This document shows positions 28,527 through 54,842 of a stretch of 64,000 bases of DNA, one piece after another. How positions within the stretch are numbered: the stretch's first letter is position 1; each line of letters begins with the position of its first letter. Origin of the DNA: Candidatus Saccharimonadales bacterium (GTDB taxonomy: Bacteria > Patescibacteriota > Saccharimonadia > Saccharimonadales > UBA10212); assembly GCA_035758565.1 (NCBI GenBank), contig DASTXL010000001.1, positions 11,242-75,241 on the forward strand, read 5' to 3'. Position numbers and translations under genes: made by a program. Under the pieces are notes generated by a model. That model was not told the DNA's origin, did not search any database, and saw nothing but the letters and a program-made list of their open reading frames with translations.

Positions 28527-28637
28527 GCTTAAATCGTGACCTCGGCTTCCGTAGTTTTGCCAAAAACTACTTCCAGCCTTCGCACGTTTTTACGCTTACC
28601 AATTTTGCAAAATATTGTCGCGCAGAACTTTGCAAAA

Positions 28638-28713
28638 TTGAGAGGAGCAACGTAGCCGGAAATCGTAGCTTTTGCCGTCAGGCAAAACAAGACATAGGCG
28701 CCAGTTGTGACGT
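28638..28713 (+). repeat. tRNA-upstream module U, copy 1 (homologous to 48811..48891)
   Basis: GAGAGGAGCAACGTAGC...TAGCTTTTGCCgtcaGGCAAAACAAGAC aligns with GGGAGGAGAAGCTTAGC...GAAGCTTTTGCCggttatcaGCAAAACAAAAC. Both end 13-22 nt before a tRNA 5' end. Confidence 0.6.
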
Positions 28714-28800
28714 GGGCGGATGGCGGAATTGGTAGACGCGCTACCTTGAGGTGGTAGTGTCCGCAAGGACGTGGAGGTTCAAGTCCTCTTTCGCCCACCA
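28714..28800 (+). tRNA. tRNA-Leu (GAG), class II with long variable arm
   Basis: Acceptor GGGCGGA/TTCGCCC, anticodon loop TTGAGGT, variable arm TGTCCGCAAGGACGT, T-loop TTCAAGT, encoded CCA. Confidence 0.9.
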
Positions 28801-29704: not shown

Positions 29705-29781
29705 GGGCGCTTAGCTCAGTTGGCTAGAGCATCTCGTTTACACCGAGAGGGTCGGGGGTTCGAGTCCCTCAGCGCCCACCA
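29705..29781 (+). tRNA. tRNA-Val (UAC)
   Basis: Acceptor GGGCGCT/AGCGCCC, anticodon loop TTTACAC, T-loop TTCGAGT, encoded CCA. Confidence 0.9.
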
Positions 29782-29782
29782 A

Positions 29783-29859
29783 GCGGGTGTAGCTCAGTTG
29801 TTTAGAGCGCTTCCTTGCCAAGGAAGAGGCCAGGGGTTAGAGTCCCCTCACCCGCACCA
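29783..29859 (+). tRNA. tRNA-Gly (GCC)
   Basis: Acceptor GCGGGTG/CACCCGC, anticodon loop TTGCCAA, T-loop TTAGAGT, encoded CCA. It starts 1 nt after tRNA-Val. Confidence 0.88.
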
Positions 29860-29865
29860 CGCATC

Positions 29866-29985
29866 AGCTAATTACGGCCAAACTAGAAAAACGCGCAATC
29901 AAGTGGCGCGTTTTTAGTTTGGCCTTCATTGCTGCTGCTTTTCCCCGCAAAGCCCACTAGCGTTCGGTCTTTGCGGGGACCCCAA
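29866..29985 (+). repeat. tRNA-downstream module D, copy A (two hairpins)
   Basis: CTAATTACGGCC, then a ~20-bp stem GGCCAAACTAGAAAAACGCGC / GCGCGTTTTTAGTTTGGCC with loop AATCAAGTG, then TTTTCCCCGCAAAG...CTTTGCGGGGACCCC. It aligns with 49025..49157 and partly with 39606..39715. Confidence 0.75.
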
Positions 29986-30098
29986 AACAGTCTGAAGTTT
30001 ATTGATCGGGCGCACCGTTTCAACTTACATCCGGTGTAGTAGGCCTCATGAGACAAAATATGTCATTTTACAGATTGAAATAAAGGTTTCAACCTTTC

Positions 30099-30107
30099 TG
30101 GTAAAAT
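30099..30107 (+). promoter_or_regulatory. Extended -10 promoter TGgTAAAAT, 6 nt upstream of ATG 30114
   Basis: TGGTAAAAT at 30099-30107 and ATG at 30114. Confidence 0.45.
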
Positions 30108-39525: not shown

Positions 39526-39599
39526 GGCGCGATGGCCGAGGAGTTAGGCAAGGGTCTGCAAAACCCTGTACACGAGTGCGAATCTCGTTCGCGCCTCCA
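39526..39599 (+). tRNA. tRNA-Cys (GCA)
   Basis: Acceptor GGCGCGA/TCGCGCC, anticodon loop CTGCAAA, discriminator U (typical for Cys), T-loop TGCGAAT, encoded CCA. Confidence 0.85.
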
Positions 39600-39605
39600 C
39601 GCAAG

Positions 39606-39715
39606 AACTAATTACGACCCCGCTCTTTTTGGCTACTTGATTGCCAAAAAGAGCGGGGTCTTGCATTGTCCTTGCTTTTCCGTTTGCTTTATCCTAAAAG
39701 CTCGCGGGTTATAAT
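39606..39715 (+). repeat. tRNA-downstream module D, copy C (perfect 18-bp hairpin and shared promoter block)
   Basis: CTAATTACGACC, then GACCCCGCTCTTTTTGGC tacttgatt GCCAAAAAGAGCGGGGTC, then CTTGCTTTTCC..., then AAGCTCGCGGGTTATAAT. That last block is identical to copy B. Confidence 0.7.
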
Positions 39716-39721
39716 TAAAAA

Positions 39722-40126
39722 ATGGTTAGGCGGTTAGCAGGTTGTATTATTACCAATGTCCATGGCCGGGTTTTGTTGATTCACCGTAACACGCCGCGTC
39801 TTTCGCAATGGGAGCTGCCAGGCGGCAAGGTTGAAGAAAACGAGTCAGCGGCACAGGCCGCTACCCGTGAAGCCTTAGAGGAAGTCAACCTTGTAGTTGA
39901 GGGTTTAGAAGAAGTTGGAGCTACCGAATTCGGAGACAACGGGTACGATTGGCACTACACTTGGTTTAGGCCTTCTCGAGTTACCGGCGATTTAAAGTTG
40001 ATGGAAAAGACATTTGATGACATTCGTTTTATAAACATTCTCTCTGGCGAAGTTGAAGATAAAGTTCTTTCTCCGAATGTCGTAGCGATTATCAAGGCAT
40101 TAAAAAACAAGCAATTCCATCTATAA
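39722..40126 (+). CDS. NUDIX hydrolase
   Basis: Nudix box GGKVEENESAAQAATREALEEVNL. ATG lies 6 nt after TATAAT (39710-15). Confidence 0.85.
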   Translation: MVRRLAGCIITNVHGRVLLIHRNTPRLSQWELPGGKVEENESAAQAATREALEEVNLVVEGLEEVGATEFGDNGYDWHYTWFRPSRVTGDLKLMEKTFDDIRFINILSGEVEDKVLSPNVVAIIKALKNKQFHL

Positions 40127-42145: not shown

Positions 42146-42271
42146 ACCGATTAGTAAGTATAATAGCACGCTACCCTTGTCAGCGACCGGTTGGCTCACG
42201 TACAATTGGTCTAGCCAAAAGTCGAAGCTCTTGCCGAAAGGGGCAGAACGAGACGGCGTAAACTCCGGCGA

Positions 42272-42358
42272 GGGGATGTGGTGAAATTGGTATACACGCT
42301 ACGTTCAGGACGTAGTGGGCTTACGCCCGTGAAGGTTCAAGTCCTTTCATCCCCACCA
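42272..42358 (+). tRNA. tRNA-Leu (CAG), class II
   Basis: Acceptor GGGGATG/CATCCCC, anticodon loop TTCAGGA, long variable arm, T-loop TTCAAGT, encoded CCA. A TAAACT hexamer ends 7 nt before the mature 5' end. Confidence 0.9.
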
Positions 42359-48759: not shown

Positions 48760-48810
48760 GTTAATTCTTAAGCCAAAATTTTAAAGCGGGTAGCTACTCA
48801 CCGTTTGAGA

Positions 48811-48891
48811 TTTTGGGAGGAGAAGCTTAGCACTAGGTTGAAGCTTTTGCCGGTTATCAGCAAAACAAAACTTCTGCGTAAGCTTCGACGA
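48811..48891 (+). repeat. tRNA-upstream module U, copy 2 (homologous to 28638..28713)
   Basis: See copy 1. It also contains three AAGCTT sites and the GCTTTTGCC...GCAAAAC hairpin. Confidence 0.6.
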
Positions 48892-48918
48892 GGGGACATA
48901 GCTCAGTTGGCTAGAGCT
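48892..48918 (+). pseudogene. tRNA 5' fragment (acceptor 5' strand and D-arm only), Ala-like
   Basis: GGGGACATAGCTCAGTTGGCTAGAGCT nearly matches the first 27 nt of tRNA-Ala(GGC) at 50265. There is no anticodon arm, T arm or 3' acceptor strand. It is followed by the palindrome TACTATAGTA. Confidence 0.7.
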
Positions 48919-48942
48919 ACTATAGTAAAATGTGGAGCGTAT

Positions 48943-49018
48943 GGGGCGTTAGCTTAGCTGGTAAAGCGCCTGTGTCGCACACAGGAGACCATCGGTTCGA
49001 ATCCGATACGCTCCACCA
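48943..49018 (+). tRNA. tRNA-Ala (CGC)
   Basis: Acceptor GGGGCGT/ACGCTCC with the G3:U70 Ala identity pair, anticodon loop GTCGCAC, T-loop TTCGAAT, encoded CCA. Confidence 0.88.
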
Positions 49019-49024
49019 CGTCAG

Positions 49025-49157
49025 AATTCGCTTCGACCAAACGACAAAAAAGCGCAAACAAGTGGCGCTTTTTTCATTTGGTCTTCGCAGCTCTTCCTTT
49101 TCCCCACAAATTCAAAATTTGCGGGGACCCCATAAGCTCGCGGGTTATAATATTTCT
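49025..49157 (+). repeat. tRNA-downstream module D, copy B (two hairpins and a promoter block)
   Basis: GACCAAACGACAAAAAAGCGC aaacaagtg GCGCTTTTTTCATTTGGTC, then TTTTCCCCACAAAT..ATTTGCGGGGACCCC, then AAGCTCGCGGGTTATAAT (-10 at 49146-51). Confidence 0.75.
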
Positions 49158-49502
49158 ATGATTGCTATCAAACGAGTTTACGAAGTAAAAAGCAAAGACG
49201 ACGGGTATCGTGTGCTGGTAGATCGGCTATGGCCGCGGGGCGTTAGTAAAGAAAAAGCGGCTTTGGATCTATGGATGAAAGACGTCGCGCCTAGTGATGG
49301 TTTACGCAAATGGTTCAACCACGACCCGGCCAAATGGGAAGAATTCGAAAAAAGGTATAAAGAAGAGTTAAAAAATAATGACGATTTGCTCGAGCAACTC
49401 AAAAATTTGGAAAAAGAACACAAGAAATTAACCTTGCTTTACAGCGCGCACGACGAGGAGCATAACCAGGCGATTGTCCTAGCCGATGTGCTTAAATCTT
49501 AA
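49158..49502 (+). CDS. DUF488 family protein (YeaO-like)
   Basis: IKRVYE...GYRVLVDRLWPRGVSKEKAALDLWMKDVAPS..LRKWFNHDP. ATG lies 6 nt after TATAAT. The longer listed ORF (from 48930) runs through tRNA-Ala. Confidence 0.8.
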   Translation: MIAIKRVYEVKSKDDGYRVLVDRLWPRGVSKEKAALDLWMKDVAPSDGLRKWFNHDPAKWEEFEKRYKEELKNNDDLLEQLKNLEKEHKKLTLLYSAHDEEHNQAIVLADVLKS

Positions 49503-50615: not shown

Positions 50616-50653
50616 CTCGTCCTATTTTTAAAGCGCGCGGTAAAATAACCTTA

Positions 50654-51555: not shown

Positions 51556-51686
51556 CACGGTCTTGCTAAGAAGTTGGTTTTATGATTTAATAGTAACGCT
51601 CTAGTGTAGGTTAAGCAGAATACGGTTTGGGCGATCTGGAGTGCCTTGTATTCCTGTGGAAACAGAAATCGACCAAGGAGGATGTG

Positions 51687-54600
51687 GTGAAATTCCACAC
51701 CGGATGGCGGCCCAAGGTCGCCTGGCTCGTGGTTGCCGCGGCAGTTCTGCTGCTTGCGGCCACCGTCAGCGGTTCCGCCAGGGCGGATGCCCCGGCGACC
51801 GTGTACGTCAACTCGGCCTGGAGTTCGGTGGCCAACGGGGATGACCCGGACGGCACCGGCCCGGCCACGGCCATGGGCACGGACGCGTTCAGCAACCTGC
51901 CCGATGCCGAGGCGGCGCTCGCCGACCACGGCACCATGTACACGAAGGGCACGTTCGATGCCTCGGACATCGCCCTGAACAAGCCGTTCACGCTGGACGG
52001 CCAGGGCGAGACCGAGCTCGACGTGTCCGCCGGCAGTTCGCCGGTGAACGCGCTCGACATCACGTCGGACGACGTGACGGTCACGGACGTCCACATCGTC
52101 GGGCCGGCCGCCGGGACGAGTTACCTCAGCTTCAGTTGGGGCAGCGACATCACGCGCGGCATCACCGTCGCGCAGGGCGTCACCGGGTTTGCGATCACGA
52201 ACAGCGTGATCGAGGGCCTGCGCAACGACATCCTGATCGACGGCCGCAACAGCACCGGCTCGGTGACGGGCAACACGATCGACGACTCCAAGTCGGCGAT
52301 CTCGGTGCAGTACACCGACGGCACGGGCCTGACCATCAACGACAACCAGGACGGCCAGTACGGCAACGAGTGGGACCTGAACCTGCACCTGAACGGGAAC
52401 TACGACGGTTCGACCACCCACTCCAACCCGTACCCGGGCGGCGCGGCGCCGGACGATGTCCAGCAGCACCTGCTGGACCTCAGCTCGGCCAACGACGGCT
52501 GGTCCGTTCAAGACCAGGCGTACACGTCGCACAACCGCACGGTGGCCTACGTCAGCACGTCCGGATCGTCGAGCAACCAGGGCAGCCCCCTGAACCAGCT
52601 CAGCACGATCCAGGCTGGCGTGGACGCCGTCGTGAAGACCGCCACGGTCCACGTCGCGGCCGGCACCTACGCGGGACAGGTCAAGATCAGTAAGGACCTG
52701 AACCTGCAAGGGGCCGGCACGGGCAGCACCACGCTGCAGGCGGCGGCCTCGATGCCGTCGTTCACGATCAACGGCTCGGCGCACTCGCCGGTCGTGGCCG
52801 TGGACGGTGCCAAGGTCACCATCAGCAACCTGACCGTTGACGGCAACGGCCAGGGCAACAGCAACGGCCGGTTCAACGGGATCGGCGGTTCCAACGCCGA
52901 CCTGACCATCGACGATGTGTCAGTCATTCACGTCCGCAACAACCCGCTCGATGGGGTGCAAAGCGGCGTAGGCATCTACGACTACAACACCGATGGCTCG
53001 AGCCGGACGGTGAAGGTCGAGAACTCGACCATCGCCGACTACCAGAAGGGCGGCGTCGTGCTGTCAGGCTCCGGTCTGACCGCCGACGTCGAGAACGTCA
53101 CCGTGACGGGCGCCGGGCAGACCAGCCTGACTGCCCAGAACGGCATCCAGGTCAGCTACGGCGCGTCGGGCACCGTCACCGGCAGCACGGTGAGCGGCAA
53201 CTACTGCACGCTCGCCAACTCCGGCGACAACTGCACGGCCGACCCGGCCGGCAGTGATCCGAACGCCGACGGTGCGGCGGGCATCCTGCTATACCAGGCA
53301 GGCTCCGTCGAGGTCGGCGATAGCACGGTGAGCAACAACCAGTACGGCATCTGGAGCGTGGGCAGTTCTTCGCTGAACATCCACGACAACCAGGTGAGCA
53401 GTTCGGGCTCGACGAGCTCGGGCGTCGCCGTCTGGAACCAGGACCAGTGGTCCAGTTCCGCAACAGCGACCTCGGGGAGCATCACCGGCAACACCCTGAG
53501 CGGCATGGGCTACGGGCTGCTGATCCGCGACTACAACGGATCGAACGCCCCGACCGTGACCGCTCACGGCAACCAGATCACCGGCAATACCGTGCCGGCG
53601 GCGAGCAACACCAGCTTCGACGCCACTGGCAACTGGTGGGGTTCGGTCTCTGGGCCGGGTACGCTCACGGACGTGACGACCAAGCCCTGGGCGACGGACG
53701 CCTCGTTCAACACCCAGAGCAACAACGCCGACCTGACGAACCTGAGCCTGTCAGCCGGTACGCTGAACCCCGCGTTCAGTGCCGGTACGACGGACTACCA
53801 GGCCAGCGTCGACAACAACACGTCGAGCGTCAGCGTCAGCTGCTCGGCCAACCCCGGCGCAACCGTGTCCGGGTGCGGCAGCTCGGCCCTGTCGGTGGGG
53901 AACAACGTGGTCGCCATCACGGTGACGTCGGCCGACGCTTCGGTGTCCAAGACGTACAACGTGGTCGTCAACCGCGCGTCGGCTCCGTCCTCGGGCGGAG
54001 GCGGCAACACCGGTGGCGGCGGTACGCCGCCGCCCACCACGACCAGCACGCCTCCGACGGTGACGACGTCGCCTGACGGGAGCGTGACCCACACGGCGCC
54101 GGCGGACCAGTTCGGTGTCGTGAGCGTGACGACGCCCGCAGCGGCGGGCACGAACAAGTCCGAGTCGCTCTCGGTGATCTGGGGTGCCGGCACGTTCGGC
54201 ACCACCAGCGACCCGGTGGCGGTGAACTGCAAGCCCATCCCGGTGGGCTCGCAGAGCAACAACAGCAGCTACCGGTTCGCCGATCAGGTCGTGAGCATCA
54301 CGGCCGAGCTGAACGGCAACCCGATCACGCAGCTGTCGGCCCCGCTGGAGATCGTCTTCTCCAGCCCGGGGGAGGGGTTCGTCCCCTCGTACTCGCACGA
54401 CGGGGTGCACTTCACCAACATCCCGCTGCTCACCCGTCCGCCGGATCTGCCGGCGGGCCAGGCGGACGGCTACTACGTCGATGACAACGGGCGCTACCAC
54501 GTGCTCACGCGTCACCTGACGATCTTCCGCCTGATGGACGGCACGCCGCCGACCGCGTCGAAGCTCAAGATCCGCCCCACGAAGAAGTGGCTGCGGGCGA

Positions 54601-54842
54601 GCTGGAGCGCGTCGCACGACAACATCGGCGTCGTCAGCTACATCGTGTACCGCAACGGTCACGGCTACCGCGTGTCCAAGCACACGTACATCCCCCTCCT
54701 CCTGCGGGCGGGCAAGTACGTGGTTCGTGCCCGTGACGCGGCGGGCAACCTCAGCAAGCCGTCGGCGACCGTCACGGTTGTCCGCGTCCGGGTCACCCGG
54801 CACGGCAAGCACTCCACGGTCCTTCAGGTGAAGAAGGGCTGA
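51687..54842 (+). CDS. Large secreted beta-helix surface protein (PbH1-like repeats, cadherin-like beta-sandwich, G/P/T linker, FN3-like C-terminus); high-GC island
   Basis: AAGGAGG at 51675-81, then GTG 51684/51687. Signal peptide KVAWLVVAAAVLLLAATVSGSARA. Beta-helix repeats (NSVIEGLRNDILIDG, GNTLSGMGYGLLIRD, HGNQITGNT). ADLTNLSLSAGTLNPAFSAGTTDYQASV. GGGGNTGGGGTPPPTTTSTPPTVTT. DNIGVVSYIVYRNG. About 65-67% G+C. Confidence 0.7.
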   Translation: MKFHTGWRPKVAWLVVAAAVLLLAATVSGSARADAPATVYVNSAWSSVANGDDPDGTGPATAMGTDAFSNLPDAEAALADHGTMYTKGTFDASDIALNKPFTLDGQGETELDVSAGSSPVNALDITSDDVTVTDVHIVGPAAGTSYLSFSWGSDITRGITVAQGVTGFAITNSVIEGLRNDILIDGRNSTGSVTGNTIDDSKSAISVQYTDGTGLTINDNQDGQYGNEWDLNLHLNGNYDGSTTHSNPYPGGAAPDDVQQHLLDLSSANDGWSVQDQAYTSHNRTVAYVSTSGSSSNQGSPLNQLSTIQAGVDAVVKTATVHVAAGTYAGQVKISKDLNLQGAGTGSTTLQAAASMPSFTINGSAHSPVVAVDGAKVTISNLTVDGNGQGNSNGRFNGIGGSNADLTIDDVSVIHVRNNPLDGVQSGVGIYDYNTDGSSRTVKVENSTIADYQKGGVVLSGSGLTADVENVTVTGAGQTSLTAQNGIQVSYGASGTVTGSTVSGNYCTLANSGDNCTADPAGSDPNADGAAGILLYQAGSVEVGDSTVSNNQYGIWSVGSSSLNIHDNQVSSSGSTSSGVAVWNQDQWSSSATATSGSITGNTLSGMGYGLLIRDYNGSNAPTVTAHGNQITGNTVPAASNTSFDATGNWWGSVSGPGTLTDVTTKPWATDASFNTQSNNADLTNLSLSAGTLNPAFSAGTTDYQASVDNNTSSVSVSCSANPGATVSGCGSSALSVGNNVVAITVTSADASVSKTYNVVVNRASAPSSGGGGNTGGGGTPPPTTTSTPPTVTTSPDGSVTHTAPADQFGVVSVTTPAAAGTNKSESLSVIWGAGTFGTTSDPVAVNCKPIPVGSQSNNSSYRFADQVVSITAELNGNPITQLSAPLEIVFSSPGEGFVPSYSHDGVHFTNIPLLTRPPDLPAGQADGYYVDDNGRYHVLTRHLTIFRLMDGTPPTASKLKIRPTKKWLRASWSASHDNIGVVSYIVYRNGHGYRVSKHTYIPLLLRAGKYVVRARDAAGNLSKPSATVTVVRVRVTRHGKHSTVLQVKKG

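Follow-up and report, generated by a model that had tools for sequence, protein, structure and literature searches.

A lineage-specific family of palindromic elements immediately downstream of tRNA genes in a Candidatus Saccharimonadales bacterium

Background

What are the long palindromes that follow several tRNA genes in the genome of a Candidatus Saccharimonadales bacterium: ordinary terminators, mobile repeats, attachment sites or something else? In a 64 kb stretch of this genome, the whole of which is referred to here as the window, three related elements of approximately 90-140 bases are each found 3' of a tRNA gene. An earlier note, made by reading the sequence, described them as two-hairpin modules that were more than generic terminators, one of them having its hairpin loop inverted between unchanged flanks, and suggested that they might be mobile or recombining cassettes carrying a leaderless-type promoter for the following gene or, alternatively, attachment or recombination sites.

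Results

Three related elements abut tRNA 3' ends

Homologues of LigA, Nudix and DUF488 assign the window to Candidatus Saccharimonadales (TM7/Saccharibacteria), and its Nudix and DUF488 proteins have 100% identical counterparts on an NCBI MAG contig. Nine tRNA genes are identified in the window by ARAGORN. Copy A of the element follows tRNA-Gly(GCC) (29783-29859, forward strand; also identified through Rfam), the co-transcribed partner of tRNA-Val (29705-29781); copy C follows tRNA-Cys(GCA) (39526-39599, forward strand); and copy B follows tRNA-Ala(CGC) (48943-49018, forward strand), which, according to a tRNA alignment, is an allele divergent from those of all relatives. In each case, the left edge of the element is the first base after the tRNA CCA (29860 in A, 39600 in C and 49019 in B), such that the three loci originally proposed are retained with boundaries that start 6 nt earlier than first described.

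The copies have blocks of sequence in common. CTAATTACGRCC is present at 29868 in A and 39608 in C, at an offset of +9 from the tRNA end in both; the 14-mer TTTGCGGGGACCCC is common to A (29970) and B (49118); and the 18-mer AAGCTCGCGGGTTATAAT is found in C (39698) and B (49134), with no third site in the 64 kb window when three mismatches are allowed. The motif AAWCAAGTR has three sites on the two strands of the window, at 29897 (+), 49056 (+) and 39634 (-), all of which are loops of the modules. All of the sequence features listed for the three loci in the earlier note, shared blocks included, are therefore present. BLAST comparisons within the window align A and B over 38 nt at 87% identity (E 1e-4) and over an exact 15 nt (E 0.007), and B and C over an exact 18 nt (E 1e-4), finding no copy beyond these three.

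A covariance model was trained on two sequences only, copy C and the orthologous copy from a sister strain (Logan SRR12170513), which has 92-96% nucleotide identity to the window in conserved genes. This leave-out model recovers both A (29860-29948; 66.2 bits, E 3e-15) and B (49019-49107; 34.4 bits, E 1e-6) at full length, with the remaining hairpins and terminators of the window scoring no more than 17 bits; reverse-strand matches to the palindromic copies themselves score 59.8, 20 and 12.4 bits. A second model, built from A, B, C and the sister copy of C and run with filters off, finds nothing else in the 64 kb window, to which all the figures given here for copy number and association with tRNA genes refer.

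It might be supposed that these are unrelated, generic terminators flanked by A and T that are alike by chance, since hairpins with A- and T-runs also occur behind other tRNA genes of the window, yet those trailers are not members of the family. The BLAST E-values, the leave-out scores of A and B, the pair counts described below, the identical 18-mer and 14-mer blocks and the common register relative to the tRNA end refute a chance resemblance, which we regard as almost certainly the wrong reading. At the level of sequence, the three copies are a real paralogous family, with a similarity beyond chance and better than that expected of A/T-flanked terminators, and the initial impression of something more than a generic terminator is borne out by the recovery of A and B well above all other hairpins. 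The trailer of tRNA-Phe (28527-28595) forms a similar three-tier hairpin; it is detected by neither model and is not counted here. Two long perfect palindromes lying close together at 2460-2490 and 2572-2616, with stems of 14 bp and 21 bp and 3-nt loops, are unrelated in sequence to the tRNA trailers (no more than 18 bits with both models).

Searches of wider collections were also made. With Rfam 15, only tRNAs pass at gathering and permissive thresholds, and nothing better than E 0.1 is found over the modules. Exact scans with AAGCTCGCGGGTTATAAT gave three matches among GTDB representative genomes and two, both in coding sequence, among JGI metagenomes; as all five lie in unrelated DNA with no tRNA nearby and are chance matches, the block is lineage-specific. 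The four-sequence model finds no member of the family in 70 kb of sequence from eight relatives' loci rich in tRNA genes.

Structure of the module

The alignment of A, B, C and the sister copy of C, from the first base after CCA to TTTTCC, is nearly free of gaps over its 90 columns. RNA folding pairs the 5' block (CGCA..CTAAT) with the spacer downstream of hairpin 1 (ATTG..TGC), and therefore the 5' block, hairpin 1 and the spacer constitute one long hairpin of approximately 80 nt. Its 29 bp are arranged in two tiers, the outer helix being separated by an internal loop from the inner one, which has 18-19 pairs and a bulge of 2 nt and is capped by a 9-nt loop (AAWCAAGTG). TTTTCC directly follows the closing helix in all four aligned sequences. 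The two-hairpin description thus requires amendment, in that a second hairpin does exist in A and B while 'hairpin 1' is the inner part of this longer structure. Standard pairs occupy 93% of cells in the alignment, a proportion that falls to 40-51% once the 3' partners are displaced by 1-3 columns; both sides have changed at 16 of the 29 pairs, and none of 500 shuffles matches the observed pairing or covariation. Folds that begin at the base after CCA have stabilities of -37 to -60 kcal/mol (z -5 to -9), copy A reaching -60.4 kcal/mol (z -7.5), and overall the folds are far more stable than those of shuffled sequences (z -4.1 to -9.0).

All three long hairpins lie on the forward strand and are supported by folding and the alignment. 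That of copy A (29860-29944; further supported by pair counts and model matches) has its outer helix at 29861-29872 / 29928-29938, its inner helix at 29876-29896 / 29906-29924, the loop AATCAAGTG in forward orientation at 29897-29905 and TTTTCC at 29939-29944. In copy C (39600-39681; sequence and pair counts), the outer helix is formed by 39601-39612 / 39665-39675 and the inner helix is a perfect 18-bp palindrome (39616-39633 / 39643-39660) around the loop TACTTGATT (39634-39642), the reverse complement of the family loop, with TTTTCC at 39676-39681. Copy B (49019-49103; sequence and model match) has an inner helix at 49035-49055 / 49065-49083, a weak outer helix at 49020-49031 / 49087-49097, the loop AAACAAGTG at 49056-49064 and TTTTCC at 49098-49103.

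A short pyrimidine-rich spacer separates the long hairpin from the second, G+C-rich hairpin (CCCCRCAAA..TTTGCGGGG), which is present in A and B with loops of different lengths and is half deleted in C. From sequence and folding, it comprises TTTTCCCCGCAAAG...CTTTGCGGGGA with a CCCCAAAA flank in A (29939-29987, forward strand) and TTTTCCCCACAAA..TTTGCGGGGA with CCCC in B (49098-49131, forward strand); the alignment suggests that only the 3' arm survives in C, as a degenerate remnant (GTTTGC..ATCCTAAA; 39682-39697, forward strand). The similarity between A and B stops after the CCCCAAAA flank, and A has no promoter block. Given this and the degeneracy of the second hairpin in C, B is the complete form, A and C being truncated in different parts. 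No T-run is found behind the second hairpin on either strand.

Sequences resembling the second hairpin, TTTTCCCCACAAAG..CTTTGCGGGGA(G)CCCC, were seen in intergenic positions between structural genes of G+C-rich tailed-phage contigs (L028 3490-3522, L030 6059-6091, L031 3949-3981 and L029 2458-2490). The likeness extends to flanking bases outside the search pattern, two scrambled control patterns gave no matches, and no tRNA lies near these sites; the resemblance may be one of convergence.

In A and B, a run of five or six T follows the inner GCGC core, whereas in C TTTTCC is the sole U-tract and the inner stem, with its T-run on the 5' arm, departs from a canonical terminator core. The U-tract is short, at four U. 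The long hairpin and U-tract would most likely terminate transcription of the tRNA unit intrinsically and provide the structure for its 3' processing. In common with intrinsic terminators of tRNA operons, a stable hairpin closed by G+C pairs directly follows the last tRNA and is succeeded by a U-run, and the extension of A-tract and U-tract in A and B is typical of strong or bidirectional terminators. By contrast, a two-tier hairpin of approximately 80 nt and 29 bp is far longer than usual, and the module also differs in its conserved 9-nt loop, in the presence of one family at three unrelated tRNA genes and in the linkage to a second hairpin and promoter block.

Inversion of the loop in copy C

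Comparison with the sister strain allows the reversed loop of copy C to be interpreted. The sister copy is identical in its flanks on both sides, and its inner hairpin reads AAATTTTTCGGC-AATCAAGTG-GCCAAAAAAT, giving it the loop of copy A in forward orientation. Over the inner 27-31 nt, the window and sister copies align with a score of 14 in reverse complement and 3 in the forward direction, and their loops agree at 8 of 9 positions in reverse complement as against 2 of 9 forward. The inversion within unchanged flanks that had been noticed by comparing paralogues is therefore a genuine one, as judged against the orthologue. The stem in the window is a perfect 18-bp palindrome; in the sister copy it is interrupted by a bulge and a C-A mismatch.

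Template switching between inverted repeats has been documented to invert the intervening spacer or loop and homogenise the arms (PMC8604942), and such inversions have been described for the hairpins of RNA genes, including bacterial ones (PMC8794818). With the sister loop forward and its stem imperfect, the flip and the perfect palindrome in the window look like the outcome of an inversion of this type. Copy C shares with these quasipalindrome mutations (PMC8794818, PMC8604942) the inversion of the loop, the unchanged flanks, the preserved loop length and the arms made complementary, and differs from them in no respect, although they account for the flip and not for the origin of the family. 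Because the element is a long palindrome, it would be prone to such events, and a template-switch mutation may both have inverted the loop and perfected the stem of C. This is the simplest explanation and requires no function for the flip, which is best regarded as a by-product of mutation at the palindrome.

The same process bears on how the stems are read. As template switching can generate double changes in a stem, the covariation proves a conserved palindrome, not necessarily selection for RNA pairing, and the double changes could result from homogenisation of the arms at the DNA level instead.

Conservation of the loop and the possibility of a trailer RNA

The loop is better preserved than the stems, being identical at 9 of 9 positions between A and the sister copy of C and at 8 of 9 in B despite changes to 16 of the 29 stem pairs, a pattern that may point to a function dependent on the loop sequence, for which a plain terminator would have no use. 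It is conceivable, although rather improbable in our judgement, that the hairpin acts through this loop as a functional RNA or protein-binding structure released by RNases, for instance as a sponge RNA of the 3' external transcribed spacer (3'ETS) type or a protein decoy, termination being secondary. The module's duplex, at least 20 bp long, is of a type that RNase III cuts; as the element begins exactly one base after CCA, maturation of the tRNA 3' end would itself free it. Correia elements are cut by RNase III (PMC10969869), and in Escherichia coli the external transcribed spacer 3' of a tRNA can serve as a regulatory RNA, an example being 3'ETS-leuZ, which is mentioned in PMC6191717. The trailer of that system likewise includes a tRNA operon terminator and could be freed by tRNA processing; the likeness to the module is no more than an analogy.

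The reversed loop of copy C weighs against this possibility, as an inversion destroys any reading of the loop at the RNA level and the copy nevertheless persists. Furthermore, no complementary target for the loop is found elsewhere in the 64 kb window, no Rfam family matches the element, and the family is absent from the 70 kb of relatives' sequence with the same flanking genes.

A promoter block shared by copies B and C

The 18-mer common to B and C lies immediately ahead of a gene in both. In C (AAGCTCGCGGGTTATAAT, 39698-39715, forward strand), its -10 sequence stops 6 nt short of the start codon, ATG, of a NUDIX gene (39722-40126, forward strand), and in B the identical block (49134-49151, forward strand) has its -10 ending 6 nt before the ATG of a DUF488 gene (49158-49502, forward strand). 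Both genes were identified by domain scans and matches to database proteins, with equal-length proteins agreeing on the start codons. The block consists of 12 nt abutting TATAAT, and the arrangement of TATAAT, 6 nt and ATG at both genes leaves too little space for a Shine-Dalgarno sequence; no hexamer resembling a -35 precedes the module -10. Among window ORFs of at least 80 codons, TANAAT occurs 5-8 nt before the start in 14 cases, compared with 0-7 in the other 4-nt spacing classes, which suggests that many genes of this organism have leaderless starts; TAAAAT and 6 nt likewise precede the ATG of the gene that follows module A. As strong promoters in the window are often of the form GGT(T)ATAAT, part of the shared 18-mer is constrained by promoter function.

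The proposal that the identical block provides a leaderless-type promoter thus gains support from the confirmed start codons, and the 12-nt block with TATAAT 6 nt before the start codon would, in B and C, act as the promoter of a leaderless mRNA. Derivation of the promoter block from a tRNA T-arm (GCGGGTTATAAT compared with GCGGGTTCGAAT), and of the second hairpin of B from an anticodon arm, were both considered and dropped, the stems being too long and no partial tRNA signal being present. A further promoter at 50627-50646 (AAAGCGCGCGGTAAAAT) bears a weak likeness to the block that is not conserved at the orthologous promoter in L014.

Module-free sites in relatives

The comparison of orthologous tRNA loci, advocated in the earlier note, finds sites without the module at all three positions. 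At locus A, a relative whose flanking genes have approximately 70% nucleotide identity to those of the window (L004) has tRNA-Gly followed by 13 nt, a plain 11-bp terminator and then the same conserved non-coding block as in the window. At locus C, the order tRNA-Cys, Nudix, tRNA-Leu(TAA) is kept in L032 (Nudix 54% identical in amino acids), and the Nudix ATG is 5 nt past CCA. At locus B, L015, L016 and L014 have tRNA-Ala(CGC) followed, after 19 or 35 nt with a Shine-Dalgarno sequence, by DUF488, while in L004 and L010 tRNA-Ala(CGC) is on the other strand. The sister strain has module C and lacks module B, its DUF488 being 94% identical in amino acids. Compared with these relatives, in which the downstream gene lies directly against the tRNA or behind a plain terminator, the module is an insertion that would add a transcriptional stop and, in B and C, also a fresh start between the tRNA and its neighbour.

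These alignments also reveal other features of the loci. The non-coding block after locus A (29998-30100 in the window; 1960-2055 on the reverse strand of L004) is roughly 85% identical as estimated from the alignment, with a mean column identity of 79% across all 148 columns and only approximately 70% identity in the flanking coding sequence; it has no Rfam match and could be an unannotated small RNA or regulatory region. After the simple terminator of tRNA-Ala(CGC) in L004 and L010, a G+C-rich non-coding stretch of approximately 130 nt is conserved between the two (L004 12020-12165, L010 13150-13300), with no convincing Rfam match. The Nudix and DUF488 genes of relatives start 5-35 nt after the tRNA CCA (L032 523-604, L015 4647-4745, L014 1-96), and with the 5-nt gap of L032 processing of the tRNA 3' end would itself yield a nearly leaderless mRNA.

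Replacement of a tRNA gene at locus B

The history of copy B can be reconstructed from its junctions. The window and L015 are collinear from Ham1 through an upstream element as far as nucleotide 26 of the tRNA (48917), and collinearity resumes at 49145-49153. The left-hand side ends in a 26-nt 5' stump of the ancestral tRNA-Ala(CGC) (48892-48917, forward strand), of which 24 of 26 positions are identical to the sister and L015 allele. There follows a 227-bp replacement segment (48918-49144, forward strand; boundaries from BLAST against L013, L015, L016 and L014 and from the tRNA alignment) that contains the promoter-like TAGTAAAAT (48923-48931), a new tRNA-Ala(CGC) allele unlike that of any relative, and module B, and from 49145 onward the window is again orthologous to the sister strain. 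The stump and the new allele within this segment imply that B arrived as part of the replacement of a tRNA gene. As the sister strain has TAAAAT, 6 nt and ATG at the right junction, this junction falls at the upstream edge of a pre-existing -10, and at locus B only 12 nt of the shared 18-mer, AAGCTCGCGGGT, are certainly derived from the module.

Discussion

Spread of the family

A number of these observations would be expected of a non-autonomous mobile element, similar to MITEs or the pneumococcal SPRITE, that inserted just past tRNA 3' ends and was mobilised in trans by an enzyme whose gene lies elsewhere in the genome. The left junction is the same at three unrelated tRNAs, the sites are empty in outgroups at all three loci, copy B is polymorphic in its presence between close strains, the core is palindromic and the family is confined to a species-level lineage; moreover, SPRITE demonstrates that terminator-like repeats can proliferate (PMC3049150). 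Against this, B came with a promoter and a whole new tRNA gene, which is a replacement and not a simple insertion, and comparison with the empty sites of L004, L015, L014 and L032 reveals no target-site duplication at the junctions. The full module has no terminal inverted repeats, its first approximately 85 nt being palindromic and its ends unrelated; only three copies occur in 64 kb, with none away from tRNAs; a scan of ORFs between 26 and 55 kb revealed no transposase domain; and A, B and C are mosaics differing by the loss of blocks, as would be anticipated of old, recombining and decaying copies. We consider mobility of this kind unlikely, albeit a possibility to be taken seriously. Of the idea of a mobile or recombining cassette, then, the recombining part is upheld by the empty sites, the polymorphism of B and the 227-bp replacement, whereas autonomous mobility is not.

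The position of the modules at tRNA 3' ends, and the tRNA stump at locus B, also recall the attachment sites or scars of integrative elements that target tRNA genes. In addition, the 3' end of tRNA-Leu(TAA) is duplicated in the sister strain, the two copies flanking approximately 145 nt, which suggests that tRNA ends are recombination hot spots in this lineage. The stump at locus B is, however, the 5' part of a tRNA gene with a complete new tRNA behind it, unlike the direct repeat of a tRNA 3' end that an integrase leaves behind, and no direct repeats bracket A, B or C. The downstream DUF488 and Nudix genes are syntenic in relatives that lack the module, and hence are not island cargo, and the domain scan of ORFs from 26 to 55 kb gave no integrase. 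Searches of phage collections returned only tRNA-level or chance matches: BLAST with the locus B cassette matched only in its tRNA-Ala part, and the 11 matches to the hairpin 1 core and loop in a scan of viral contigs are G+C-rich, have no A/T-run flanks or nearby tRNAs and are consistent with chance. That the modules are att sites, as one alternative in the earlier note had it, is accordingly very improbable.

On balance, the elements are probably a lineage-specific, recombining family of tRNA-trailer terminators, with a leaderless promoter in addition, and not att sites. Under this reading, copies would spread and be reshuffled by DNA recombination together with tRNA genes, requiring no machinery of their own.

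Other elements beside tRNA genes

A second conserved element, separate from the module and approximately 125-135 nt long, directly precedes tRNA genes, its end coinciding exactly with their 5' ends. It is found in the window at 28586-28720, 42150-42278 and 48760-48898 and in relatives at L011 586-728, L013 307-444 (reverse strand), L015 4519-4653 and L010 6105-6242 (reverse strand), abutting tRNA-Leu(GAG), -Leu(CAG), -Leu(TAA) and -Ala(CGC) in genomes with nucleotide identities down to approximately 70%. RNAalifold predicts 35 pairs, with double changes in 18 of the 35, and a five-copy model finds two more members, both abutting tRNA-Leu(CAG); there is no Rfam match. Upstream of tRNA-Leu(TAA), it is present in the sister strain and absent from the window. 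As its first palindrome overlaps -35-like sequences (TTGCAA/TTGTCA), it may be part promoter or operator DNA and part tRNA leader. One could speculate that this element and the trailer module are both mobile cassettes specific to the flanks of tRNA genes, which insert at their borders, rewire transcription, render co-transcribed genes leaderless and release RNAs that act through their loops; we think there is only a slim chance that this is correct.

The duplication at tRNA-Leu(TAA) in the sister strain consists of the last approximately 18-20 nt of the gene (L011 ~788-807), directly repeated approximately 145 nt downstream (~951-970). Between the repeats lie a new terminator hairpin and G+C-rich DNA, and the arrangement, which the window lacks, has the appearance of a minor scar left by integration or duplication at the 3' end of a tRNA gene. 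Elsewhere in the window, the region at 51627-54842 (52-55 kb) has a G+C content of 56-66% in a genome of 48% and is covered by an ORF of 1071 codons, in which beta-helix and cadherin-like domains and short direct repeats are found.

Relationship to known repeats and biological significance

The closest described elements are the pneumococcal SPRITE (PMC3049150) and promoter- or terminator-bearing MITEs such as the Correia elements, which can supply both promoters and terminators (PMC10969869). These too are species-restricted repeats of less than 200 bp located just downstream of genes, with a long duplex and U-rich tract that give them the appearance of an oversized terminator, and the module resembles SPRITE in having a duplex of at least 18 bp (the inner 18-19 bp plus the outer helix), a U-rich tail and a lineage-restricted distribution. 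It differs in that no more than three copies are known, each placed precisely at the 3' end of a tRNA gene, in its lack of terminal inverted repeats, target duplications and a linked IS, and in that one copy, B, demonstrably moved with a tRNA gene.

The family would open no long-standing question unless it proved to be mobile or its trailer RNA functional. It nevertheless provides clean natural examples both of the inversion of a hairpin loop between close strains and of the replacement of a tRNA gene by a short cassette. It also carries a warning for annotation, in that 'conserved' loops and compensatory changes in palindromes can come from template switching at the level of DNA and not from selection on RNA. 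Finally, the Nudix and DUF488 genes, which abut a tRNA gene and are presumably co-transcribed with it in relatives, are here separated from it by a putative terminator-plus-promoter module of approximately 120-140 nt, suggesting that a very small, host-dependent bacterium can rewire expression beside its tRNA genes.
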